NCBI GenBank assembly: GCA_003971905.1 | Contig: RSEE01000028.1 | Location: 186,001-250,000, forward strand | Source of the DNA: Moniliella sp. 'wahieum' | Taxonomy: Eukaryota | Reading direction: 5' to 3' | DNA length: 64,000 nucleotides | Shown here: positions 2,677 through 40,100 of the stretch, piece by piece | Layout of the letters: every line of letters starts with the position of its first letter | Numbering within the stretch: the stretch's first letter is position 1 | Notes under the pieces: model-generated | What the model was told of the DNA's origin: nothing | The model's database searches: none | What the model saw: the letters and a program-made list of their open reading frames with translations, nothing else | Translations under genes and position numbers: made by a program

Positions 2677-4967
2677 ATGCCCGCCGGTGACGACCCCTCT
2701 CACGCCTCCGCGCCTTCCGGCGTGCCAATGACCCCCACCCCACCCAACCCACCCTCGACGAGATCCGCCAGCAGTACGAGCAGCTGGGCCAGGCGCCACC
2801 GCTGCCCAACATCCCCCTCCCGGAAAACGGCGAGGAAGGCCGCTCCACCCTTGACGTCGAGAGCGTTCCATCTCAATCTCAGGTCCACCGCCAGTCCATT
2901 GCTCATTCTATGCGCCCCTCCTTCTCTCACGGCGCTGACGATGAATTGGACGTCAGCAACCTACCCATCACGGACGCCCAGCGTGCCCGTATCGTGTCGC
3001 GCCAGTATGTTGAGACCCTTTCTGCCGCCGTTCCACACCAACCTGACCTTTGTTTTCTTACAGTCTTGCCCCGACTGACTCGGAGTCCAATCGTGCGTCG
3101 ATGGTGAATGACTCGGCCTTTTCGAACGAAGGTGTCTTCTCGTCGTCCGCAGCGTCACGCGCCGGGGCCGACGAAGACGGCGAGGAACCCAACGCCGAAG
3201 AGGACTACCAAGTTCCTTATCACCGTCCTGGTGGTGCTGTTGTCGATGACATTTACAAATGGGCGCAGCAAAATCGTGCTGCGGGGAAACGGGTGCGGAG
3301 CGAGTCGCTCCACGTGCCTCGTACTTCCACCATCGACACGGTCTTTGACACCTCTTCCATCAAAGAGCCCGGTGGATTCCGCCGCCACTTTGTTCAACAG
3401 CAAGCAGCTGAACAAGGCCGTCCACAGCCCCGTGCGTTGCGTTCGTTTATTGACTTTTTGTCCCTCTATGGCCACTTTGCCGGTGAAGATCTCGACGATC
3501 TTGATGCGGTTGTGGAAGACGAGGACGAAGAGGAAGAAGACGAAACCGAGGCTGAAGAGGAAGACATTGAACGGGCAGGGGCTCGCTCAGGTGCGCTTCC
3601 CACTTCCTTCCGCCAGGCGGGCGCAGGCTCGAGTGAGCGGGATGCTCCTGGCTGCACCTCGCGGACGTGTCCGTGCCGTCCGCCCGGGTCGCGGCAGTCG
3701 CATGACGACCGAGCAACGCATTCGCAGTGTCAGCCAGCAAAAGAAGCCAGGTGAGGCAACTGTGACAGAGGCAGTCATGATGCTACTCAAGTCGTTTGTG
3801 GGAACAGGCATTCTGTTCTTGGGCAAGGCCTTCTTCAATGGTGGCCTGGGCTTTTCTATTGTTGTCCTCACATCTGTCGCCATGATCTCTCTCGTCTCGT
3901 TCTTGCTCTTGGTCAAGGCCAACCTCAAAGTGCCTGCTTCGTTTGGTGACATGGGTGGGGTACTCTACGGCCCCCGGATGCGTCTCGCCATCTTGGCTTC
4001 GATTGTCTTTTCCCAACTGGGCTTTGTCGCCGCCTATACTGTCTTTGTCGCTCAGAGTCTGCAGGCGTTCATCCTCGCCGTCTCGCACTGTGAGCGGCTG
4101 GTGCCCATTGGGTACCTCATTCTTGTTCAGCTCATTGCCTTCCTCCCCCTTTCATTGGTACGCCGGATCGCCAAGCTCTCCGGCACGGCATTGGTGGCGG
4201 ATGCGTTCATTCCTTTGGCATTGTGTACCTTTTCCAGTTTGAGATCCGCAAGATTTCACGTGAGGGTTTGGCTGATGTGGTGCAGTTCAACCGCCATGAC
4301 TTCCCGCTGTTGATTGGTACTGCCGTGTTTACATTTGAGGGTATTGGCCTCGTCATCCCCATCACCGAGTCCATGAAGGAGCCGCAAAAGTTCCCCAAGG
4401 TGCTCAGCTATGTGATGGTTTCATCACGATCCTTTTTGCTTCAGCGGGAGCTTTGGGCTACGGAGCATTTGGATCGGAGATCCAGACCGTGGTGATCACC
4501 AACTTGCCACAAAACAGTCCGTTTGTGCAAGCTCTTCAGGCTTTCTACAGTGTGGCTATCCTGCTTTCGACTCCTCTTCAACTCTTCCCTGCTCTTTCTA
4601 TCCTTGAGAAGGGCATCTTTGGATCGCGACGGAGTGGCAAGTTCGACTGGAGGGTCAAGACGCAAAAGAATATGTTCCGCATCCTTGTCGTTTGCGTTTG
4701 TGCCCTCGCGGCCTGGGCTGGTGCGAGCGACCTGGACAAGTTTGTCTCGTTGATTGGCAGTGTGGCGTGCGTGCCACTCTGCTTTATCTACCCGCCGCTT
4801 TTGCATCTCAAGGCGTGTGCAACGCGGTGGCGCACGCGCATGCTTGACTACCTCCTCTTGGCGTTCGGCATTGTCTGTGTCCTCTTTGCTGGCTCCCAGA
4901 CCATCGTGGCCCTGGCAGAGCCGAGGGGCCCACCTAAGCCACGCAGTGCTCTGCTCCGCTCCCCTAA
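2677..4967 (+). CDS. Vacuolar amino-acid transporter, AVT3/AVT4-like (Aa_trans family)
   Basis: Motifs KEPGGFRRHFV, SFIDFLSLYGHFAGEDL, AVMMLLKSFVGTGILFLGKAFFNGG, GTAVFTFEGIGLVIPITESMKEP and DLDKFVSLIGSVACVPLCFIYPPLLH. Intron 3005-3063 (GTATGT..CCTGAC..CAG) restores IVSRHLAP. Several frameshifts; stop position approximate. Confidence 0.9.
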
Positions 4968-5817
4968 TTTGTTCCTGTTTGCTTGCTCTGCCACACATTG
5001 TGCTAGCTACAGATGCCACCCATGGCACTGCTCCTTCTCTCTCGCCATCGCATTCAAAAACGTTTCCCCCCTGTCCGCTTTTCCATCCCCTGTCATGCAT
5101 CATGCCTCATGCCTCATGCCTCATGCCTCATACTTTAAGACTACCTGGCCTCGCAATCCCCCTTTCACGGGAGGTGGCGGGGGGGTATACGCCGTGTTCT
5201 TTCCATGTTCTCTGGTCTTTCTATGTTGTTTGGCGCAAGGAGTGGTGGTCCGTATAGGGGGACTTGCTCTCGTTGTGCTGTTGTGCATGAGACAGACTGA
5301 TTCCGTTGCTATGTGTCGCCGAGTGTGATGGACCTTTGCGTTGAAGCTCGAATGTCTGAACCCACCAACGCCCAAGAAAGAAAGAGCAACTTGGGCTGCC
5401 CTGGCCTGAGGTGCTCAATGATTAATGAGGTCTTCTGATCTGCCGTGCTCTGGCTGACCATCATAGAGACCGACGTAGCTCGAAGCTCCTCATTGACCAG
5501 GTCGATCATCTTGACCAGGCCGATCATCGATCATTTGGATGGTCGTTTTTGAACGTTTGACGAGTTGGATTTGAAACGACCGCTTTCCAAGACAGACTGC
5601 CATGTGGCATGTGGAAGCGCCCCCCCCCAGAAGGGAAAGAGTGGCGCCATGCTCTGCTGCATCGTGCCAGGCTGGCAGCACACGGCGAGTGCCGACCTGC
5701 CGCAGGCTTACGTGGTCTGCTCTGCGTGGCGAGCGGCGATTGGCTTGGGCCCAGCCAGCAGCCAAGACACCAGCCAGCGCCACTGCGTCTGCTCCACCAT
5801 ATCTGACCCTGCCCTCC

Positions 5818-6891: not shown

Positions 6892-7799
6892 TCATGCGCC
6901 TTGGACATTCACCCCTGAGGGGAGCTTCGTGAGAACAGGGCCTTTGGATACCTCATCCCAGTTGGTCGCCAAGGCACTTCCTTCGGACTGGAGATACGAG
7001 GTGACAATCGCGTTGCGGGTCTCTTCCTTGGCATCGGTAGAGAAAAGCTTGAAGAATGGATCGAGGTTGAGTTCGTCACTTCCTTCCTCATCCGGGTCGA
7101 ACTCGCCTCCTCCCCAGGGTTGAGCTGGTCTAGACTGCCTGGAACGTTCCACTTCATGAAGGTGCGCAATGACTCTTCCCTGTTGGAATACGTATCCTGA
7201 GATGCATGTGAGGTACCAGGCATGGCGTTTTGGGTACCTCCAGGGACGACCGAAGGGCCACTCGGCGCTTTGGAGCAGGTGTTTTGGCAGGGACGCTGGA
7301 TGTTTTGGAAGGAGCGCTGGGAGTTTTGGCAGGGGCGCTGGATGTTTTGGCAGGGGCACTGGGTGCTTTGGCAGGGGCACTGGGTGCTTGGAAGGGCGGC
7401 AGATGCAGAGGTTGAGGCGCCAGCAGGGATGACAGAAGGTAACTTCATGTCGACAGTCAACTTTGGCCAGTGTAAACCCCGAGTCTCCTTGGCTAGGACG
7501 AGGTCCAGCTTCATGCTAAGGACTTTGAAGGAGCTGTGCGGCCGAGGGCGAATTGGAGCAAAGAGATCAATGAGTATAATGTCATCTTCTTTAAGTTCAC
7601 CACCGAGGTCGATGTGCACCTGTCGGCAGGTAAACATAACATCGACCTTCTTGGGGTCGAGCTTTTTTTTGTGACAGATACAACGACCTCCTGGTCCGTT
7701 TGGTAAAAGTCAATCCTACGCAGAAATAGAACGGTTAGCATGGAAACAGAGCGGATTAAAGGGCGCTGGGAAGAGAGCATGCCTAGGAGGGGCCGACAT
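6892..7799 (-). CDS. SGT1: SGT1-like Hsp90 co-chaperone (CS + SGS domains, no TPR), divergent
   Basis: MSAPPR|IDFYQTDQEVVVSV..SFKVLSMKLDLVLAKETRGLHWPKL (CS domain) and FFKLFSTDAKEETRNAIVTSYLQSEGSALATNWDEVSKGPV (SGS domain). Intron 7716-7782; frameshifts. Confidence 0.8.
7281..7392. repeat. 21-bp tandem minisatellite (~5.5 copies) inside the SGT1 linker
   Basis: Units such as gttttggcagggacgctggat / gttttggcaggggcgctggat / gttttggcaggggcactgggt. Confidence 0.95.
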
Positions 7800-9137
7800 G
7801 GCGCGGAACGAAGAGTAGCGTTGGACGCCAAGAATGAACAGATGGTGGCGGCGCGGACCAGCGGGTGAACAACAGAGATGGGTAAGTACACAGCTCACAG
7901 CTTACCTAAGCATGACCACCGCTATCCCTTTGGAGCTGGGCAAAAGGACACGACGCGTCTTGACCACAGATAGGCCATTCAGCAGCGAATATTGATTCAG
8001 GTAGCAAACATCAAGCCAAGCGGAGGGGAGAAGAGGAGGGGGGAAGAAGAGGAGGGATGGAGGAGTGGACATGCGAGATAGAACGGTGCCTGTGCGCGCA
8101 CGGCGTGTAGCTTGGCTGCCGGCAATCCCTATCATCACCATCAAGCTGTGATGGGTCATTCGCACGTGGCCGCATCCTCCTCCTTCTATTTACAAATGCA
8201 AAACACACTGGCATGATCTCCATCCATCCTACCATCCCACTTTTCTTCATTGTTCCTTTTGGCAGCTGGGCCACCTCTGGTCCCATGCGTTTCCATTTCG
8301 CAGCGCCTTTATCTGTTCCCGATGTTTAAAAGGGGGGAGGGTGAGATCAACCTCAGACTCTATAACCACACTCCGACCGTTGCTTGTGCCAGGGAGTTGC
8401 GAAAATGTTTCCCGTATCACTTGTAAAAGCGCAACATTTGGAACGCTGTATCCAAGTTCCACCCCTGCTCAACACATTGCACCACTCAATCCTTGACGTC
8501 CGTAAGGGGTGTGGAAATCTGTCCAGATCGACCAAACAGAACCTGGATAAATCCAGTGACGAGCCTGTGGTTGCTCGAGTGCGACTTGGAGAGCATCCGG
8601 CGATCCTATGGATCAGCCGCAAAGCAGCCTTCAGACAAGACATTAAGGCAAAGCGGTGAGCCACAATTAAGTCTTCAAGCAACGTCTGAAGGGAATGAGG
8701 CGGGAGGGAGAGAAGGGAGGTGGAGCGAGCAGGGGGTGGGCAGCCTGCGAGCGGAACTCTTCCGCACGACTAGTAGCGAGCGTTACCGATCAACTGGAGG
8801 ACCGTGCAGGGGAACCGATTGTTTCTGTACCTGTACAGAGAGTGCAGTCCCCTGCAGCTAGTGAGTCACTGGATTAGTCAAGCGCAGGCCCAGACGCCAT
8901 CCGCAACTGTGCCTCCGAGGCTAAGAAATAGAGTTGTCTCGGATATTATTTCCGCGTGCTGTTTTTCATTGTGCCTGTGGATCTATGTCCTGTACCTTTT
9001 TTTGACCCACCACCCAGGAGCTTTTCGCTCCTGATCGACCGGTCTCACCTCCGCTGCACCATCTCCCCTCTAAACTTGCTCTTAAGGCTGGCTGTTTTCT
9101 GCTTACGCCTCTGAGCCATCGTCATCGAGTCATCGTC

Positions 9138-26429: not shown

Positions 26430-29400
26430 TCAATTCCAGAGGGGAGCAAACCAACCCCCATCCATCTGCCCCGTTTGGAACTCGTTGTCGGCGTCCCACT
26501 CTTCTGCCGGCATCTGGGTCACATCGCTTACGGGGACAACGCACGATAGCAGTTGGCGCAGCCGAGCAAAATTGACGGGCTTGGTCAGCCAACCGTCGAG
26601 ACCGTCCGAGCGCAGCGTCTCGCGCAACGTCTCTTCCAGCGTTGCGCTGACGGCCAAGATGGGGACGCGGCGACGCGGCGACGCGCTTGATGGGACCGGG
26701 TGCTGAATTTCGACGGCTCGGATCGCACGCGTGGCACCTTGGCCATCGAGCACAGGCATCTGGAGGTCCATCAGCCCACATCGATATCTCGATTGGCGGT
26801 GAACCGTTGGAGCGCCTGTTGGCCGTCCTCGGCCTCTTGCACCGACGTGTGGCCATCCATCACGAGCCGCTTCTTGAGAATCATCCGGTTCACCGAATTG
26901 TCATCCACAACTAGGATTCGTAGTGGCGGGGTGGCCTTGGGGCGTTTGGCTCGGTCCCCAGCCTGCTTGGCTGCCACAACGGTGTGGACACCGGTCGCAC
27001 TGGCTCGGCGAGCAGCAAAGTCGGGCCGCTTGGGAACCTTGAGCGTCGGAGCAGGTGAAGGTGACGGTGCATTGCGCGCGTCAGGAGCCACACTGGTTCC
27101 AGCCGACCGGCGAGGGGCCACACCAATTTGGGTTGGGGAAGACTGGGGCAAGGAGAGACGCTTGTCCCCATCTGCAGATGCAGTAGGGTGCATCGACGAC
27201 GACGCACCGAGCGCGGCTGGGACGGGGCCAGTCTGTTGCTCGATCAACGCCCCTGATTTTGGCCCCGACACAGTTCGTATCACAGCGGCAGCGGTAGTGG
27301 GAGAGGCAGGGTGAAAGGGAGATGAACTTTCGTCAATCGAGCTTTGACGTAAAGTAGGTCGAGCGCCAGGACCGAAAGAGGCAATGGAAGATCCCATGCT
27401 GGAGGAGCCCATGGGCTGCTGGGACCGGCCAGCAAAGGTGAGAGGCAAGCGGAAGGTAAGCGTGGTTCCTATGCCTTCTTGGCTATCGACCCGAAGCTGG
27501 CCCTTGAGCAGCTTGACCGTGTGCGCCACGACGGCCAAGCCGACGCCTAGACCGTCCTTGGACTTTTTGGGTTCGGGAACAAACGAGGATTGGGTCGTGG
27601 TGGCCCCTGTTCTTCCTTCCAAGGACGTGGAGACACCAGGATCATAGGTCACTTCGGCATGCGTCACTGTCGGTGCACCCACCTCCACCTTGATCGTCTC
27701 CACCTCTTCCAAGGCACGAAAGATGGACTCGAGCAAGGCGCGCGGCATGCCTTTGCCATTGTCGCTGATCATCAGCTCGTACACTGCCATGGGCGAGAGC
27801 AAGGACTTGGCGTCCGTGTCGACGGGCTGGGGCAGCTGGTGCAGCTCCACCTCGACGGTTCCCGTCTCCGATGCCGAGTTGGCAAACGAGTTGGAGAGAA
27901 CGTTTGATGAGTTGGCGGATGCGGCACCGATCGCTAACAACCAAGGTGGTATCGGCGTTGAGGTTGGTGACCAAGTTGATGCCCCGCCGGCTGGCCTCGG
28001 CTTCAAACAGCTGCACGGCATCTTTCACCAGCGCCACAAGGTCAAAGGTATCAGAGCGAACGCTGGGGCCGGTAACCGACTCTTCGTCGGCAGATAGACG
28101 GGTGAGGTCGAGCAACTCATTGACGGTATGGAGCAAGGAGCGACGGCAGAATAACTGTTACGGATGTGCTCTTTGGCCTCGGCGTCCAAGGGCCATCGAG
28201 GGTGAGTTCGAGAAAGCCAAGGATCTGGTTCAGAGGCGTGCGCACATCGTGGCGCGCTTGAGAGGAGGCGGGAAGTAAGTTGGGTGAGCCGGGTGGCCTG
28301 TTCTTCTTTCTCCTCCAGATGGAGATGAAGCGGCCAAACATGTGCGAGATGGTCTCCGCCGCATCCAGATCCTCTTGCGAAAACGCCAGCGACTCGTCCG
28401 CAATCGTTTGCATCCACAGCTTAAAGCTTTTCCGCGGCTCCAGCTCCGAGTTGGCATCGGTCTCGGCACCACCGTCAGGACGATAGTCCGACTTGTACGG
28501 GTTTCCAGCCCACCGGACATGCTTCGTCTGAGGCTTGCGCATGAAGCACATAAAGTCCGTCCCGGACCCAGAGAGGGGGATGAGAATGAGGCCAGCGATC
28601 GAGGTGAGCTGAAAGGGAAGCACCATGTCGGTAAAGCATTTGAGCACATTGGACGTGGACAGAATGGTCGTGTACCGCTTGAGACGAAGATACTCGGCCA
28701 AGCCCAACACTTCTTGGCTTGAGTCGAGGGGGCCGAGGATCTTGACCTCCTTGCCCATACTGATCACACCATAGTCCGCACGAAACAGGTGGAAGAGCTC
28801 TTCGGGGTCCGAGTTAAAGTAGCCCGAGGGAGCCATCGTCGCAGGCCGCGACATGCTCAACAAATCCTGCCGGTTTTGCAAGCCCGGCGAGGGTAAGCCG
28901 CTCAATGTGTTGGCTGATCGAGTCAGCCAAGAGACAACAAAGCCGACGAAGCGGAAACGCGATTCGCTTGCCGTGAGGCCCATAGTTGTGCAGCGCAATC
29001 AACCCCCACAATTGGCCAAACGCCATGAGACTCAAGCTCATACTCGCGCGTACCCGCATGTTACTCAGATACTTGAGGTGGATTGGTGACATGGCCCGCA
29101 ACATGCAGTGGGTCATGTCGAGGGGGTGGGTGAGCGCAGCAGCAGAACGAGCTACAAGACGAGCGGTGGGCTGGTCCCGATCGTACAACAGTCGAATGCG
29201 GTTGATCCGGTACAGGTCTCGAGCTTGTGGGGGAATGTCTGTCGCAGGAAATCGGAGGCCGAGGTACAGGTCGTGAGTGTCGTCCCATGAAACGAGTTCG
29301 GTTACGACTTGGCCATTGTAGGCATGGTCAAATTGGTACACCATCACTCGACTGTACCCAGACGTTACCTCGGCCAGGATGCCTACAGCGACACGGAGGC

Positions 29401-30834
29401 AAGTCGGCAGATCCTTGGCAGCAGTCAGTTGTTCGTTGGCTTGGAGCATAATCGTAACTAGGTCCACCTCCTTGGATTGCTTGGACCTTTGACCGGCCCG
29501 GGAGCGACGTGCACTAGTAGACATAGAGAGGCACGCAAGGGCTTGGCCCCCGAAACAGTGGATTGCTGCTTTTGAGCCTCGGTCGGGAGGTACGGTTGAG
29601 ACTCATCGTCCTCCTCCTCTTCTTGAATCGACCCTTGCTCCTCGGACAGATTAGGCAAAAGGTTGGCATCGGACGGGGTGAAGGACTCCAGTCGCGGCCT
29701 CCCAATGCTCTGCCGCGATAGCGATGAAATGCCGTCGCTAGTGCTCACAGTGCTTGCCAAGCTTGAACTGGCCTTGCGGTTGAATGGTTGGGCCAACATC
29801 GATTGGGGCGCATGGCCGGCCGAGGCGGTTTCGAGCGGATTGAGATGATCATTGACCAGTTCTAACTCGAGCACCAAAGTGGCTTGCCTATCCTCCGGTG
29901 CGGCGAGAGGGCGGGTGCCGTGTGCACGCAGCATAACAAGCACGGGCTGGCATTCCTGCCGGACCTGGAATGGAAAGCTTGAACTGCTGCGGGCCAGAAT
30001 GGACCAACTCCTCCCCCGTCATTTCTTCAGCAACGTCGACATGAAGCCAAAGCAAGTCCGCCTGTTCATCGTCGAGCAAGTCTGCAAATGAATCAAGATC
30101 AAAAAGATCCTGGGGGTGAGGCCCAGCAGTTTCTCCACGTTCTCCGAGACGAGCTGGACCTTGAGTGACCCTTCGTCATCACTCTGGAGTGTGATCAGCA
30201 CACCAAAGCCTTGCACGGCCCCAGGAGCGTGGATGGGCTGTACAGCGAGTTGATGGAGATGGAAAGGGTTAGTTGTAGGCTACCACAAAAACGCGCGATG
30301 TATGCATACCTCGTCCCGGCAACGGTATATTTGGTTTGACCGACCGTCGACAATCATGTTTCCTTCAGGGGTTTGAATGTGCTTGAAGCGCGAGGTGCGC
30401 AACAGATCATCAAGGTGGTCCTTGGCCTCGGCTTGTATCGTCCGCGGGGTGGAAGTGGTGTTTACTAAGGGGCTGGACTGCGTGACAAGAGGCGCAGACA
30501 AGTCGGGAGGCTTGGCCGGAGCATTCGAGGGTGGGACAAAAGTACTTTGTAATGCTCCTTCCTTCTGGGCAGCGCCAACGTCGCCTGCGGCGCACGTGCT
30601 GCCTATCCAGGCTGATACGTCGGGTGGGGATACAGGTTGGGCTGCGTGTAGCGCATCGAACGAAGCGGAATGGCTACCATTAGGGAAGGAGGCCATAGGC
30701 GGGGAAACATCTGGAGGCATGGCCGCACCGGTCAAGGCGCCAGAACCCGTGTCAGCCGCGTCGTTGGAGAGAACATTGGTGGAACTGATGGCTGGCTTGG
30801 GCAGCAGGGCTGAGTTGGCGGCTCCTCCATTCAT
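26430..30834 (-). CDS. Fungal phytochrome (PAS-GAF-PHY-histidine kinase-receiver), FphA-like
   Basis: YRCRDE|PIHAPGAVQGFG (bilin-binding Cys at 30319-30321; intron 30238-30309), GLRFPATDIPPQARDLY, MLRAMSPIHLKYLSNM, LEPRKSF, H-box HDVRTPLNQILGFLE, DNGKGM/GLGVGLAVV, and receiver LRILVVDDNSVN..MDLQMPVLDG..KPVNF. Frameshifts. Confidence 0.95.
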
Positions 30835-31942: not shown

Positions 31943-31996
31943 TTGAAGCTTGAAGCTTGAAGCTCGAGCTCGAAGCTCGAAGCTCGAAGCTCGAAG
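31943..31996. repeat. (TTGAAGC)n/(CTCGAAG)n heptamer array
   Basis: ttgaagcttgaagcttgaagctcgagctcgaagctcgaagctcgaagctcgaag. Confidence 0.9.
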
Positions 31997-32804
31997 GCCA
32001 ACTTCGCATCACGCTGTCACGTGCCACCCTCGGTTTGCCCGGTGCAACGGGACCCACCCGTCGTCAGTACCGCCAGTGTCAAGCGCCAAAGCTTCAAGCT
32101 TGAAGAGCCCCCAGTAGATGACCGAAAATTCTGCCTAATCCTAAGCCGCTCCCGCTCACACCAGTCTCCTTTGCCAGGCGTGGGCAGCATTCCACCGCAT
32201 CCAGCGGATCCGGCATTCCAATCAGCAGCATCCAGCGCAAGCATCGCCCACTTCAGTCCAATCCACCCTGCCATCACCACCACTACCACGTTCCCCCCAC
32301 CCACTTAATATGCCTTCTTCCGCCTCCTTGCCTTTTAACCAACATCCAAAACGGAAACACACATTCATTCGACACGGGCGGGTGTGAAAAATTGAAACAT
32401 GGGTCATGGCGGGATTGGAAAATGGGTAAAACGGCTGCATAAGCGGAATGGGGCTGAAGAGGCCGGTGGCAGAGACCCGACGATTGTGGCGACATGCATT
32501 TGGGGCTGCAACCCACGCCTCACCGTCTGGCCTCTTGCTCCGTAACCGCCCCTTCCCTTCGGCCATGCCCTGCGCATGGGACGCATGACAGTCATCCGTC
32601 ACCTGGCTCGTTCGCCGGCAAAGAAGCTTTTATGTGCGCATGCGCATCATGTCAAAGCGCAGCCCATCGCCCCATCTCACGTCTCGAGAGGTTCCGGCTG
32701 ATGGGTCCGGGATACGCACTACCCTATGGTCTGGCTACTGATGACTGACGACTGCCACCAAACCTATACTCATCCTCATCGCGCAATGCATGCCCATTTG
32801 GTTC

Positions 32805-33640
32805 TCGCATCAATCACTGTCACTGTCCGAAGAGTCGTCGCTGTTGCCCCCCCTCCGACAGCGGCCACGGCAGGTGTCTTCTTCTTGGCGCGCTTGTCCC
32901 ACAGGTGCATGGCACCCTTCGTTGCAATCCTGTTATTGGCTGGGGGCCAGCACTACTCGTGGAATATCGACGCCATCAGAGTGTCTCGAGGATGGGGAGC
33001 GCCGCGAATGGGAGAGCAACAAGCATAGTGCGCACATCCTTCCCAACCCCAGTCTTTAGGTTAGCCAACAAACCCCTAGCTCGGATATTGGTGCCCTCTG
33101 TGCCAGGATACCCTCCGTGTTGAGATCGCAGATGAATATCAGTCTCTTGGTTGCGGATTTGCTCGACACGCTCATTCGGGGCGCCGAGCGGGTTGTCATG
33201 CGTCCGCGGGTGGCAAAGGACGCGCCCGTGGGCTCTTGAAGGTGGTCCAAAGGAAACACTGGGCTACGTCTGGCATAACTCGTCCTCGGCCATGGTAGTG
33301 TCTACAGGCGAGGAGGCACGGGAAGCAGGGGAAGGCGAGCATGCGTCAGGTGGCTGGGGCATGCTCGCATCTTCGGCCACCTCGTCAATGGCGTGACTGG
33401 CCCCCAGCCTCGCACCCAGCGCCACGTTGTGGCTGTACCTGCGCACCTTCGTGTGCTTGAGTGCATGAAACCGGACATCGGTCGAACTGGGCAAGCAGGG
33501 GACTGGGACAGCAACCCCTCGTCCTGCTTCACCGTGGACCAGGCCGCGGGAAAAGGTACAGCAGATGCGTCTGTCCTATTTTGCACGTGTGCGGCTCGTT
33601 CCATCTGTCGGCATTTTGATGAGCCGACGTCGAAACATGG
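32805..33640 (-). pseudogene. Decayed ORF of unknown function inside the TIR element
   Basis: Protein-like fragments in shifting frames (..AIDEVAEDASMPQPP..TTMAEDEL..; ANLKTGVGKDVRTMLVALPF..; MASIFHE*CWPPANNRIATKGAMHLWDKRAKKK..; GGNSDDSSDSDSD*) with an in-frame stop. No family recognised. Confidence 0.3.
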
Positions 33641-34192
33641 CGGTGGCGACTTGGTAAAAGGATGGGCGAGATGGGTTGTACATATGATATGCATTGGTGG
33701 GTGCTTTTTTTGTCACAGGTCCGGCAGACGATCACGGCCCCCTCTAACCTTTTAAACCTTGCCCCCTCTAACCTTAAAACTTGCCCCCTCTCCCAGAGAC
33801 GCACGCTCTCCCCTTCTTTGATGCTCTTCCAAAGCGTATTACATTCGTCATCCCCTATCTGAAGATGAGAGTGGCGCAGTCCAGATGGCCACCCGGATGG
33901 GTGATGTGGTAGCACTATAGTGTTGGCAGTGTGGTGGTCGAATACGCCACAGCCAACGACATGCTTAATACAAGGGTGCATGAAAGAGCAACAGAGGCTA
34001 TATACCTTAGGGATGCGGAGATCATGGACAAAGCCAACACAAAAGCTAAATGGAATGGTTACAACATCGGAGCTCCTTGACCTCGACCAGGGGCTATCGC
34101 CTTGACTTTTGATGTAACACCGTAGGTCACTAGTCACTAGTCACTAGTATAGCTCAAGTGAGGATAATCGTGACCTGTATAGCGATTCACCC

Positions 34193-34407
34193 GGCTATGG
34201 AGACCGCAATGGATGCTGAAGCGTTTGGGACAGTAGCGTAGGCGATCGATTGCGGGCGAGAGATAGGCGTTGGTGGTAGGAAGCAGGGCGAGCGCTACTG
34301 GACAAGGCTACTAGTCGTTGGCTTACTCTCGGGTACGCGCGCATCACCAGTCTTCGGAGCCCGCGGAGGCTCGGGGCTAGAGAAGCTGCAAAAGTGCGCC
34401 GCGTTCG
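34193..34407 (+). repeat. Dispersed conserved non-coding element, copy B (inside the TIR element)
   Basis: Collinear match to the reverse complement of 19190-19456, with indels. Confidence 0.85.
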
Positions 34408-34573
34408 GTGAAGGCAGTAAGTAGTAACTAGTCACCGTCGCAACAGACAAGTAGTACTACAGCAAGTCGCAAATAGGCAAACTCAAAAGAGCGCTCTTGA
34501 TTGATGATTAGACCCTCGAACGCTGCTGCAGGGGGCCGCTAGTGTTGCGGCGTTAGACAGATATAATAGCTTA

Positions 34574-34633
34574 CCTATAGGCCCCTGGTGTGGCCCAGGA
34601 TTGCCTATAGGCCCCTGGCGTAGCCCAGATTGG
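34574..34633. repeat. 2 x 30-bp tandem repeat in a putative promoter of the element
   Basis: cctataggcccctggtgtggcccaggattg / cctataggcccctggcgtagcccagattgg. Preceded by ATATAATA; GATTGG (inverted CCAATC) ends the second unit and recurs near 34646. Confidence 0.85.
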
Positions 34634-34869
34634 CCTGTGCGCACAGATTGGCTGCGCCACACGCGCCTCTTTTTAACCTCCTGCTCCTCTGTGGTTGCAT
34701 CCTGTCTCCTCACCACCGCCCCTCTCATTGCGCCCGCAACCAGTATCCCTGTGCCACGGCGCAACAGCACCATCTTCTTCCCCTCTGGCCACCAACATCA
34801 CCATCGTTGCTGCCTGCACTGCTTACTGCCCGCCGTCCTCATCCCGCCTCCATCGCTCGGTTCTCCGCG

Positions 34870-35700
34870 CCTGGTCTGCATTGCTGCCGTACGTCTCTAT
34901 TCCCCCCCGCCGCACTCTGCCCTCCTCGCCTCGTCAGTATCGCTGTTGGACGCCCCCTCTGCCTCTCGCCCCGTCCCCCTCAGACTGTCTGCATTGCTTT
35001 TGTCGTATGTGTTCTCTATCACACCAGCGCTCTGTTGCTGACCCCGCGTACACAGACTCCCCCTCGCAGACCATCTTGCCCTCGTTTCACCTGATCCGCA
35101 GAGCCATCGTACGTGCCCGCTTCCTCCGCATTCCCCACACTTCTGCTGACCTTGTGGGTCGCATGCATGACGTGCATGCACCGTTTCGCTCACCTTCGGC
35201 CTTGTCCGTCTGGTTCCATTTTGCCTCGCCTGAGGTCCACTCGCTTGGCTGGTCTGCCTTGCTATCGTACGTCCTCCGTACTTCGCGCTTGGAGTTGTCC
35301 CCACTGACACTGTCTGCCCAGCTGCTGTATGCACGGAATCCCACGGTTGGTTCGTCTCGCCTTGTTCGCCTCAACTCATCTGACCTGTTTCGCCGTCGTA
35401 CGTCCCTTCTGTTATATGCCAACGCTGTTCCTGACCTTGTTCGCCCTACCAGTGTGCATTCCGACTTCATCCCGCTTGCCCTCGCTACTGGCCGTCTTGA
35501 TCGCCTGACCCGTGAGTCCGTCGCACATCTTCTGTGTCTCTCGCTAACCCTATGCTGCTGCACACTTGGCCAGCTTCTCCCTAGTGCGCACTCCCCTCAC
35601 ACTAACCTGCCACTTTCTGTACCGCTCGCTGCTCTACTATGTTGTGGTGCTTCCGCCTGACGTCACACCTAACCGTGGTTGCCGTGTCATCGCTTCCCAG
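34870..35700 (+). ncRNA. Putative multiply spliced non-coding transcript or 5'UTR (array of mini-introns)
   Basis: Donors at 34889, 35005, 35109, 35267, 35398, 35512 and 35584; CTRAC branch points at 35037, 35145, 35303, 35430, 35543 and 35601; CAG acceptors ending at 35055, 35321, 35452 and 35573. No ATG from 34561 to 34888. Confidence 0.5.
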
Positions 35701-36612
35701 CGATCTTCGAATGCATTCTATACCTAAAAAATACCTACCCTGCCTGTAAATCTATAGTAGTTCTGGATCGATGCCAGCCCCATCCAGCCAGCCGGTTAGA
35801 AAGCCTACAAGCACGCATCCAATCAACAGCTAAGCGCTTGGCCCAAATTTGGGCCAAGCGCTTGAGCGCATGTGGCCAAACCGGTTGACCTCAGGTGGGT
35901 CAAGTGCTTGACCTCTTGGGCCAAAACGCTTAACCTCATGTGGCCACAGTATCCAAAAACTCTTGAAGGCACTTTATACGCATTTTTGGGTGATGTGGTC
36001 ATCTAAGCAAAATTTTAATTTTTCACACCCGCCCGTGGAACCTTAGTACTTTGATTCGTTGTTACAGGCTATACCAAAGAAATGGACGGCATCTGCCTGT
36101 ACTACGGGCCAATGGCCGTACAGGCTTCATGGATTTCCGTCTTCACCTTAGGTATGCAATGCATCTGGCAACTCTGGATCCAAAGATTATAGCACTTTCA
36201 TGGTTCTAAGGCGTTGCTTATCAGGTGTTCTTTGGGTTTTGCTCCACATACATATACCTCCCCCCCGTACTCCCTCATTACTAGATCTTTCCCCCCCCTC
36301 CTGCCTCTGCCCCGCAATCGACTTCATTCTCTTTCAGGCTGTTGTTTCCCCCCCCCCCCACTCTCTATTTGGCCCCTCCGCTTCCTTGCGTATCTGCCAC
36401 GCATCACCACTGTCGCCTCCCCACCTCCAACAGTCTTCGCCTAATGGCTTAGCAAGTATGAAATACGCCCAGTGCGAGGCCCCGACTTTTTTCCCTCGAA
36501 GAAAGCACATCCTCTGGGTGGCAGCCGGCGACTCTGACACAGATGGCATGCCGGTTATACGTTTCACGGAGGTTCTTTACGAGACTGTGGTATGAGACCC
36601 TGAATTCTGACG

Positions 36613-37194: not shown

Positions 37195-40100
37195 ATGGGC
37201 ATTGGTGATGCTTGGGAGCATGCGGTGCCGTACGTCGTCTTCCCTGGCCCTCTCTGCTGCCGCTGCTGACCCCCTACCCCCCCCCCTCCCGCAGCTCCTT
37301 CCGCCAGCTCTACGGCGTAATCGAGGAGCGCAACGTTGCCTTTCCTGCCAGCGTCCTGCAAGCCCGCATCTCTGAGTTCCGCTCCCTTCGCCCCGGCTTT
37401 GATTCCATCGAGGACAAACGCGACGCGCTTCAACTCCAGGTCGGCGACCAAACCTATCGCGTCCCCGTCGATGAAAAACAACGCCAGACGGCATCCGTTG
37501 CGCGCAAGCGCCTTGTTCTCCCTGAAACCGAGGCCCAGGTACTGCTGTTGTTCAAGCAATGGCTCGTGTCCACCGAGGACGAGCACCCATTTCCCCAGCC
37601 TGCCACTGCCCCCTCCGATGCTCGACAATTTTGTCGTCTGGTATTGGGACGAGCGTCTCTACCTGGTTCGCTGCATCCGCTCCCTCCTTCGTCTTGAGAG
37701 TGGAGGCGAGACCGGAGGCGAAGACGAACAGCTTCAGGCCCGCAGGCTCCTTGAACAACTCCAACTTGATGGCAAGCCCTCCTACCCATCCCAGTGCGTT
37801 TCCCACGTGCAAGATCTCGTGACCAAGCCTCTTCCCGATCAGCTGCGCGACAACCTGCGCGATGCGAATTTGGCCGCCGAACAGCGTCTTCGCCTCCAGC
37901 TCGAGATCCTCGACGCGGTTCTTCTTTATTGCTACAACTACGCCATCCCCGATGCGGCCACTTGTCTGGCTCTGCTACGCTTTGTCCGTGATACAGACTT
38001 TGCCCGTCGACAGGCTGACGCATCTTTCCACACCACCATGGAAGCCCAACAACTGCTCCAGTGCATCGGTGCGTTGGCCACTCTGGTCTGTGTCGAGAGC
38101 GTAAGCATCGAGGCTGTGATGGACTTTCAGCCGGGTCTCCTTCCTCCTTCGACTAGTTCGGTGGAAGAGCAGGCACCCTCTGGTGCCGCCGCTCTCGCTC
38201 GCTCTCCGGCCACCTTAAACGAGGCGTTGGACCTGATCAACTCGCTCAACTTCAGTCCTTTCTGGGGACCCGTGTGTCTTGTTTATGCACTCATCCTGAA
38301 CCGCATTGAAGCTGCCTTGGAGATCGAACAGAGTAACTCGACCGATGGTGCGCTCCCTGCCCACCTCACAGCATTGGCGGAAGTGATTGATCCAGGCCCA
38401 GGCCAGGAGCCGGTGTGGACCAAGCTTGCCACCCTGGCCTTCCACCCAACTACCCGGATTAACAAAACTGTGTCCGATATCCTTTCAGTACTACGAACCG
38501 TGTCGCACCAAAACTTCACCTGTCCTTCGCATTTGATCTACCGCGGTGTGATCAAAGGACTGCTTCTTGCTGAGACGGAGCTCGTGAAGCCGTCCTACAT
38601 CTCTGACGGTGAAGAACTTCTCGCTTCTTGGCAGGGCGTACTCGGCCACACGCCTTCACACCATGACAGCCGTTTGCGTAAGGGGGCTGCTGAACTGGCT
38701 GAACAATTTTGGTCGGAAGACTTCCCATCCGAGACGCGGTCCTCATTCCTTGTCCTGACGGCCAGTCGTTGGCCAGTGCTGTTCACTCCGTTTGTGTCGC
38801 TTTTGACGTGTTTGACAGGGCGCCATGCCGAGCCAGCCCAGGGAAGCTCCAGTGCCTGGACCTCGGATGCAGCTGAGGCTGCGACCACGAATACCTTTTC
38901 TTCGTTTGGACGCTTGAGCGTGATCACGCTGTTCCTCCCGCCGGAGCGGGTGGTGGGGAACCCGTACGAGGCTATCGTCGACCCCGTGACCGGCGAGCTG
39001 GGGTACCAACTTGTTCGCCCTATGCACGTATTTGGTCGTACGCATCTGCCCGTGGGCGCAGTTGGACAGGCAGTCTCTGAAACGGAGGCGACCCATCTGG
39101 TTGTTCGATGGAACCTACCGCGGCCGATCAGCGGTTGGCGCATTCTGCGTGACCTCCTTGCTTTCCTTATGGGGCTCTACCCCGAGGCGGGGAAACTGGA
39201 GGCCTTGGTGCTATCCACCTCTCCTGACCAAAAAGAGGATATTATCCTTACTGCGCTCCAACTATTAGCTTCTGTTCTTTCTGCGGAAGGAAAACTACCG
39301 ACCGACTGCTCAACCACCTTGACGGACAGCCTGATCCAATCTTGGACGAGGACAACGATGACGAAGATACTGCACCGGTTCCGGCGGGTGTCTCTTTGAC
39401 AGCGATCGTGATGGCCGTGCTGAGTAAAGCGCTTTCGACACCGACTTCTTACAATGCACCGTTGGTCTGCACCGCATACGAGATCTTGTCGTATCTCGTG
39501 ACCCTTCGGCCAACGGAGGTATGGCAAGCCCTCCGCCCCAGGAATATTGCTCTGGGTAGTGCCGACCTGGTCCCAATCCGCGCGAGGGAAGGGGTTCACG
39601 CCGAGTCGGTGGTGTTGGAGAGCAAGGTCTTACACACAAGCAAAGTGGCTGGTGATTACACTTCACTTTTGTCGCTGCTCGATTTCCAAGCGATTTTGCT
39701 CGATGAGTTGGTCACTTCGCAATTTGCTGCGCCGCCCGAGTTGCTGGAGACTAAGGTGTTTGTCGCCCGCCGGATCCTGTGCTGGATGATCGAGCTCGTC
39801 TGGGCCGATGCACTCAACTGGCGCTATACTCGACCCGAAGAACGTTTGGCCGTGCTGAACAAGTGTCTCTTCCCGTTCAACCTTATCCTCTCGGATCCGG
39901 CCTTGTCTTCGCCCGCTGCAGCCAACGCTGGCCCTGCTCCCTCGTCTACACATCCTAACGAGCGTGATGGACAAGGCGTTCCTTTCACCGGGGGGAACCT
40001 CCACTTTTACTGGTCCCCTCATCACCATTCTTGGCTGTAGCGCCACTCTCACCTCGGACGGAGCCGCTGAGAGCCCTGCGGCTGGGCTGGAGGCCGAGGA

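Follow-up and report, generated by a model that had tools for sequence, protein, structure and literature searches.

The window, by which we mean the whole stretch of 64,000 nucleotides analyzed here, contains at 32373-36037 a DNA transposon copy of 3,665 bp, derived by deletion from a CMCT/EnSpm-like element of 9.2 kb, and the array of short intron-like units considered in this work sits in its right arm (Table 1). About 1.2 kb past the right terminal inverted repeat (TIR), a Nup188-like gene begins at 37195 on the plus strand, which is also the strand of the array, with a first intron at 37230-37294; PF21093 is present in its relatives, and its best named match is from Thecaphora, at 31%. 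A phytochrome-like gene occupies about 26770-30020 on the minus strand, split over several frames with GAF, PHY, HisKA, HATPase and receiver domains, and a second, weaker PHY match occurs on contig C11. Arrays with a 7-bp period and palindromic hexamers were observed at 31945-31998, 32088-32104 and 34126-34148, both inside and outside the element.

Table 1. Positions of the element, the array and their signals in the window; copy counts refer to aligned genomic copies.
Feature	Position	Strand	Basis or remark
Left target site duplication (TSD), GA	32371-32372		2 bp, of variable sequence
Left TIR, beginning CAC	32373-32397	+	25 nt, 96% complementary to the right TIR
Left arm plus three transposase-region segments	32398-34100	transposase on - in the full-length element	mapping to copy L051
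Candidate promoter, TATA-like ATATAATAG	34561-34569	+	just upstream of the pyrimidine switch
ATG-free pyrimidine-rich leader or first exon	34600-34888	+	ATG scan, composition
Pre-donor 18-nt motif, copy 1	34871-34888	+	11-15 of 18 positions shared among the four; P<0.001 versus random 18-mers from this region
Pre-donor motif, other copies	35091-35108, 35249-35266, 35380-35397; shifted copy before 35005	+	
Intron-like unit 1	34889-34937	+	donor and CAG, no consensus branch site; AG missing in subfamily B
Predicted intron 2, 51 nt	35005-35055	+	all three signals; donor 36/41, branch 36/41, AG 39/41 copies
Intron-like unit 3	35109-35161	+	donor and branch; no acceptor here, TAG in six long copies; AG 7/41
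Predicted intron 4, 55 nt	35267-35321	+	all three signals; donor 37/41, branch 34/42, AG 41/42
Predicted intron 5, 55 nt	35398-35452	+	acceptor mostly in subfamily A; AG 24/42 at that column
Predicted intron 6, 62 nt	35512-35573	+	AG 40/42
Micro-exon, 10 nt	35574-35583	+	10 nt in 37/42 copies
Predicted intron 7, 117 nt	35584-35700	+	branch 35669, CAG 35698-35700
Subterminal 23-nt repeats, about 4	35834-35946	+	right end only; 16 motif copies in L051
Right TIR	36013-36037	-	TIR pairing
Right TSD, GA	36038-36039		matches the left GA

An earlier note on this sequence had described the array as transposon-borne, and the TIR pair, the TSDs and the copies found throughout the genome support that description. 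Genome-wide, 35 TIR matches were found against none in a reversed control, while the array itself matched 40 places at 77-100% identity (40 of 63 candidates scored); 52 copies were aligned. A 2-bp TSD is present in 10 of the 12 copies with both ends found, with GA, TA, TT, TC, TG and GC among the sequences seen. Five long copies of 9.1-9.6 kb, together with a sixth interrupted by a contig end, are 99.2-99.6% identical. Their layout, as represented by L051, comprises a spliced transposase gene on the minus strand, a two-intron gene (ORF2) on the plus strand, and the right arm with the array, the 23-nt repeats and the TIR. ORF2 extends over L051 5812-7224 with about 430 codons, its stop at 7224 preceding the first array donor at 8109; it has no Pfam match, its pieces have no RuvC/TnpB match, and its relatives (41-100%) were seen only among element copies in the search of this genome. 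The window copy maps to L051 239-799, 2159-2317, 4334-5268 and then 7326 onward, which means that most of the transposase and the entire ORF2 are deleted.

In all six long copies the array occupies the same position, on the strand of ORF2 and directed outward through the subterminal repeats and the right TIR, with nothing else beyond it. The repeats, whose cores are palindromic, number between about 4 and 16 (L051 9060-9355). The earlier note had also considered an orphaned 5'UTR and asked whether a transposase frame follows this leader in other copies; since the transposase lies on the opposite strand and no ORF follows the array in the intact copies, the array is not an orphaned transposase leader. 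Among more distant copies (20 loci at weak transposase or TIR matches, 8 at ORF2 matches), those beyond subfamily B are fragments that lack the right arm. Two copies resembling subfamily B, L117 and L118, have the transposase-start segment (about 4400-5450) inverted relative to ORF2, and in both the arm ends at an identical base, L051 8143. Divergence between copies includes many tandem micro-duplications of 2-12 nt and homopolymer indels, part of which may be assembly error.

By its termini with TIRs, its TSD length and its C(2)C and H(4)H motifs, judged against the characters given for the clade in the available text of PMC12730594, the element is a member of the CMCT clade, an assignment drawn from sequence features. 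That clade, which unites EnSpm/CACTA, Plavaka and ESTA, is described as having CA..TG termini, a 2-5-bp TSD, and C(2)C and H(3-4)H motifs (PMC12730594). In the transposase, C55 and C58 of the C(2)C motif are near-invariant in 13 aligned rows and the H(4)H motif, HLLLAH, lies in the next exon; for the DDE triad, D36 is near-invariant and a candidate FE motif was found, with no alignment to a named EnSpm or Plavaka transposase. An exhaustive search with the transposase exon returned 36 relatives, 35 of them at 25-40% identity; a search among longer proteins gave no homologue. Neither the transposase nor the 20 relatives scanned among these 36 matched Pfam. By feature similarity the exon is nearest to the Plavaka and Transposase_21 clusters (0.96), at a recognition value below threshold.

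Compared with the groups within the clade as they are described in the available parts of PMC12730594, the element shares the CA..TG ends, a 2-bp TSD, the C(2)C and H(4)H motifs and the similarity to Plavaka/Transposase_21 with the clade as a whole. Fungal EnSpm elements have the same CAC..GTG ends, but a 3-bp TSD, whereas that of this element is 2 bp and variable (PMC12730594). Plavaka A/B elements are given TGT..ACA or CATCA..TGATG termini, unlike the CAC..GTG found here, and ESTA a TSD that is exclusively TA, in contrast to the six different TSDs of this element (PMC12730594). The same descriptions, so far as they are available, mention no non-coding unit (PMC12730594).

The coordinates given in the earlier note for seven donors and for four introns closed by CAG (51, 55, 55 and 62 nt) proved exact. 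The donors lie at 34889 (GTACGT), 35005 (GTATGT), 35109, 35267, 35398 (GTACGT), 35512 (GTGAGT) and 35584 (GTGCGC). Six of the seven are followed by CTRAC, in donor order at +33, +37, +37, +33, +32 and +18; the remaining donor, 34889, has none. Against 5000 dinucleotide shuffles of 34870-35710, this stretch holds 8 donor-plus-branch modules (mean 0.59, reached in 0/5000), 4 complete modules (mean 0.20, 12/5000) and 10 CTRAC words (mean 2.4, 0/5000). Donors alone are less striking, at 9 against 4.2 (131/5000), the search pattern adding 35327 and 35452 to the seven. The exceptional intron density that had been claimed for the array also holds: it is the densest stretch and the top-scoring of 1264 sliding windows on both strands of the 64 kb, and it contains 4 of the 26 complete modules that the same pattern finds in the whole window. 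Its signals are strand-specific and of the short-intron kind typical of the host.

Two units had been singled out in the earlier note as lacking an acceptor. That at 35109 does lack one in the window copy and has a TAG in the full-length copies, while that at 35584 was misjudged, given that the branch site and the CAG listed in Table 1 are usable and would define an intron of 117 nt; in subfamily B a nearer acceptor lies at 35622-35624. Intron 6 has a second, nearer branch site at 35561 in most copies, which the window copy has lost. The predicted exons measure 53-130 nt, apart from the micro-exon, whose end overlaps a TAG at 35582-35584 (kept in 41/42 copies) that may serve as an alternative acceptor. 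Together with 35099-35101 (39/41 copies), this is one of two further YAG words whose use would give 7-nt and zero-length exon variants.

Upstream of the array, the absence of ATG that had been pointed out was confirmed, the closest being at 34504, with none between 34505 and 35006. Composition changes abruptly at about 34600, where the count of A per 100 nt drops from 20-35 to 7-18, and A makes up 12% of the array stretch. The TATA-like site that precedes this switch has the state ATATAATAG in 15 copies and ATATACTAT in 6, the remaining states being rarer.

Neither a reading frame nor an RNA fold is conserved in the array. In the window copy, and there only, 327 codons can be read across it without splicing and without a stop (34677-35660); this frame is broken in all 8 other copies checked and has no Pfam match. 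Between subfamilies, exons vary in length by amounts not divisible by three, and changes on the internal branches of the copy tree show no third-position excess (31, 39 and 38 by codon position). After splicing, the longest ATG frames of six subfamily consensuses span 75-116 codons, against shuffle medians of 79-101. An ATG frame from 35176 (74-100 codons), with a shared stop at 35506 in the long copies and subfamily B, was considered and rejected, as the two keep the same frame in only 77 of 220 shared columns; its omega is 0.9-1.05 in subfamily B and 2.2 in the long copies. The codon-like appearance of the pre-donor motif was likewise ruled out by the absence of third-position bias. Within the array the six long copies are at most one substitution and three indel columns apart, and this near-identity indicates that sequencing error is not hiding a frame there. 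The earlier observation that the element has no coding sequence at this place holds, with no ORF between the array and the right TIR in full-length copies. In their A content (6-14%) the exons resemble the introns.

Structure predictions place no 120-nt window of the unspliced array below z = -1.3, and in the spliced model 1 of 10 windows reaches z -2.1, with z +1.0 for the whole; the strong folds of the arm are confined to the subterminal repeats (z -6.2). A search of Rfam gave a single chance match (E 4.2), and box C was not found in the array. Stwintron and split-acceptor models, compared in alignments by eye, yielded a single case, in which removal of intron 6 would bring the branch site at 35505 near the TAG at 35582, and were set aside.

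Evidence on the function of the splice signals comes from the copies themselves. Changes were mapped by parsimony on the copy tree, in which inserted copies form the tips and multiplying ancestors the internal branches, with the expectation of neutral decay on the former and visible selection on the latter. For the GT, CT-AC and AG bases of 42 copies, picked from the consensus purely by pattern, a choice that favors conserved columns, internal branches carry 9 changes against 18.6 expected (P 0.019) and tips 63 against 66.8, and 1 of 108 slid controls was equally low. Defining them on the window copy (GT, CT-AC and the four stable AGs; 42 copies), a version biased by its omission of the variable acceptors, gives 5 against 15.5 on internal branches (P 0.004) and 50 against 52.8 on tips. 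With all eight acceptor places added, the internal count becomes 10 against 17.4 (P 0.058), or against 12.1 (P 0.36) when the background is restricted to columns where window and consensus agree. With 52 copies and two aligners, internal branches carry 11 and 12 changes against 21.4 (P 0.019 and 0.032) and tips 95 against 90 and 84 against 87; inclusion of the variable acceptors changes the internal counts to 16 against 23.6 and 17 against 23.8 (P 0.09 and 0.12). The direction is the same in all versions, with P 0.004-0.03 in four and 0.06-0.36 in four harsher ones.

The ratio of consensus-keeping to consensus-breaking changes points the same way: 11:7 on internal branches against 27:64 on tips in the 42-copy set (P 0.015), and 11:12 against 40:97 (P 0.09) and 10:14 against 33:87 (P 0.22) with 52 copies. 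At donor CpGs, internal branches show 6 C>T and 1 G>A changes, compared with 13:23 at other CpGs (P 0.033), and the 18 nt before donors carry 18 internal changes against 27.1 (P 0.055). On internal branches, splice-signal bases thus appear to have undergone roughly half the expected number of changes, and on tips they change neutrally, which is modest evidence for selection. Acceptors 2, 4, 6 and the last are kept in 39/41, 41/42, 40/42 and 37/42 copies, while four of the eight acceptor places, namely 1, 3, 5 and the nearer one of unit 7, vary by subfamily. All seven GT..AG pairs are present in 5 of the 6 long copies and in none of the 36 others, and several non-autonomous subfamilies lost unit 1 yet still spread. 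Positive selection for acceptor gain was tried as an explanation and dropped, since 12 of 234 sites account for 2 of the 17 AG gains on internal branches, a share not above chance.

The earlier note had also proposed that an exon-plus-intron module was amplified in tandem, from a motif shared by three donors. The motif is real, but it stands in register before four donors (34889, 35109, 35267 and 35398) and in shifted form before a fifth (35005), and what it appears to record is an old internal duplication of exon ends; there is no clean array, and TRF finds no module-length period. Beyond the 18 nt of Table 1, the 27 nt before these donors are also alike (P 0.001-0.005), whereas the 5' bodies of the introns are not (P 0.6-0.75). 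Exon ends are similar to the 3' ends of the introns: four of them have a branch-like word 18 nt ahead of the donor, a spacing equal to that of introns 2 and 4, and the similarity has P<0.001 with this word held fixed. The two hexamers, branch-like and donor, form a 24-nt motif of fixed spacing. These patterns suggest an origin of the units in repeated duplication, long ago, of a short donor-terminated stretch, possibly intron-like DNA, rather than a recent tandem array.

Several explanations can be set against these observations, and the reading that we favor, if with reserve, is that the array is a spliced non-coding RNA polymerase II unit of the transposon, its third unit. Repeated exon-plus-intron modules could instead be the relic of a multi-exon protein gene, be it a third element gene or a fragment acquired from the host, whose frame died before the subfamilies split and whose splice signals have merely not yet eroded. 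The gene-like lengths of exons, micro-exon and introns, the homology of exon ends but not of intron 5' bodies, as if exons had been constrained longer, the patchy acceptors 1, 3, 5 and 7, as in decay, and the lack of significance in the harsher selection tests all fit such a relic. Nevertheless, there is no surviving frame, codon-position bias or omega below 1, the A content of exons is that of introns, the stop-free frame has no Pfam match, exon ends that look like intron 3' ends fit duplicated intron-like DNA better than codons, and the deficit of changes at signal bases falls on internal branches; we regard the relic as rather unlikely, though the main rival. The position of the array downstream of the ORF2 stop on the same strand, and the fact that the copies with ORF2 are those with all seven GT..AG pairs, would also suit a long multi-intron 3'UTR that tunes the level or decay of the ORF2 mRNA. 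That proposal, which we hold to be improbable, must accommodate about 880 nt between stop and first donor, including a purine-rich block, a TATA-like word and the abrupt pyrimidine switch, as well as the retention of the arm in ORF2-less copies, where many internal-branch changes keep the consensus.

It is very unlikely that an element protein binds the repeats at the DNA level as subterminal sites, the donor-like and branch-like words being part of the motif and never spliced. En/Spm-type elements do use subterminal binding repeats, the 24-nt motif joins its two hexamers at fixed spacing, and the 18 nt before donors are somewhat conserved internally. However, binding sites leave unexplained the AG acceptors located 13-32 nt past the branch sites and kept in 37-41 of 41-42 copies, as well as changes that move between allowed signals (GTACGT, GTATGT and GTAAGT; CTGAC and CTAAC), and the element already has its separate 23-nt subterminal repeats. 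The least probable proposals, to which we give hardly any credence, are those of the earlier note that acceptor-less modules stall spliceosomes and thereby feed RNAi, or that the array donates introns. Precedent exists in Cryptococcus, where poorly spliced transposon transcripts are described as feeding RNAi through SCANR (PMC5851062, PMC7763443), and units 3 and 5 lack an acceptor in many copies. Genome searches, however, gave no match for Piwi, RdRP, RNase III or C5 DNA methylase domains, with phytochrome domains found at 79 and 38 bits as a positive control; for this absence, the RdRP search also had no match in 14 control genomes, an RNase III relative might be expected, and the assembly may be incomplete. 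With these RNAi genes not found, SCANR would be without its machinery here, and the long copies, the most recently spread, carry the complete GT..AG set in five of six cases. Intron donation fares no better, as no lone intron-sized copy in host genes was seen among the matches (40 of 63 candidates scored in one search), each match being a long element piece.

RNAi loss is known in Ustilaginomycotina, Ustilago maydis included, according to the available text of PMC7763443. CpG sites on tips change slightly faster than other sites (C 1.25 against 1.16 and G 1.53 against 1.10 per column), an excess in line with little methylation. Glycogen synthase encoded on another contig has its best named matches in Exobasidium, Ceraceosorus, Ustilago and Tilletia, at 74-75% identity, which suggests that the host is a smut-related basidiomycete. 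The genome is repeat-rich and measures 69.5 Mb, and RNAi and DNA methylation may have been lost jointly alongside its expansion.

The array is a real, transposon-borne feature and is probably a spliced non-coding unit, and for its function we infer the following sequence of events. The heavily spliced lncRNA of the earlier note is accordingly the best reading of its data, with modest support from the splice-signal test and no frame kept, although the transcript itself is a predicted one. Transcription would start at the TATA-like site near 34561, at the onset of the pyrimidine-rich sequence, and the transcript would be spliced to an unstructured non-coding RNA of about 0.7-0.8 kb. The copy tree suggests that, as the element multiplied, it retained its donors and branch sites along with four acceptors, and that these decayed freely after insertion, with acceptors 1, 3, 5 and 7 turning over between subfamilies. 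Given that neither frame nor fold is kept, splicing itself is the simplest selected property. At the weakest step of this account, selection would act on transcription and splicing in cis, not on the RNA product. With strong introns, a non-coding transcript may get through nuclear quality control and so continue to be produced, and sustained transcription would keep the right end open, with its putative transposase-binding repeats. A cis role of this kind would account for the retention of the signals in non-autonomous subfamilies.

Introns are described as raising RNA accumulation cumulatively in Cryptococcus (PMC3744415) and are cited as protective against R-loops (PMC5851062). Carried over, these effects would allow the array to sustain safe transcription through the right end and the binding repeats. 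Intron-dependent expression is known from the intron-rich Cryptococcus, though, and smuts are described as intron-poor (PMC8476143), which is why it may not carry over.

DNA-transposon arms are usually regarded as protein-binding DNA. If the favored reading is true, the host splicing machinery would be recruited for the benefit of the element, non-autonomous lineages included, the reverse of the situation in Cryptococcus, where poor splicing betrays transposons. Fifty or more outward-pointing copies could send spliced leaders into neighboring genes, and read-through from the window copy could reach the Nup188-like gene. A stronger version, in which transcription and splicing beside one end are required in cis for mobility by opening or protecting that end, in a host seemingly without RNAi and DNA methylation, is speculative and in our estimate unlikely; if it held, splicing itself would be a cis-requirement of DNA transposition. 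Should the relic explanation be the true one, the array would be an ordinary transposon-borne pseudogene.

Other systems combine some of these properties. The omega-RNA of Fanzor/TnpB elements is a non-coding RNA at the right end of the element, and snoRNA host genes are multi-intron non-coding transcripts. The array differs from both in having no Rfam match, box C or stable fold, its introns measure 51-62 nt, and ORF2 has no RuvC/TnpB match. In the largely open-access literature searched, no multi-intron non-coding unit in the arm of a DNA transposon was found described.

Of the published cases found, the closest is in Cryptococcus neoformans, whose KDZ1 has two annotated non-coding RNAs, CNAG_12018 and CNAG_12019 (PMC11588098). 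As described in the available text, KDZ1 is likewise a large basidiomycete TIR transposon with a transposase and genes of unknown function, but it is a KDZ element with an 8-bp TSD and a 236-bp TIR, whereas the element studied here is of CMCT type (PMC11588098). CNAG_12019 runs antisense to the transposase and gives rise to small RNAs, while the array has no overlap with any gene, is directed outward through the right end and resides in a host showing no RNAi genes (PMC11588098). The available part of the KDZ1 account says nothing on introns in its non-coding RNAs; the array has seven predicted ones (PMC11588098).

With SCANR, as the available texts present it, the array shares a transposon transcript, predicted in our case, and incomplete intron signals, but SCANR needs the Argonaute and RdRP that were not found here, and the signals of the array are strong consensus rather than suboptimal ones (PMC5851062, PMC7763443). 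Intron-dependent RNA accumulation was shown on mRNAs of an intron-rich yeast, not on a transposon non-coding RNA of a smut-related fungus (PMC3744415). Within the available account, it nonetheless offers a reason for many short introns in one transcript, namely that their effect is cumulative (PMC3744415).
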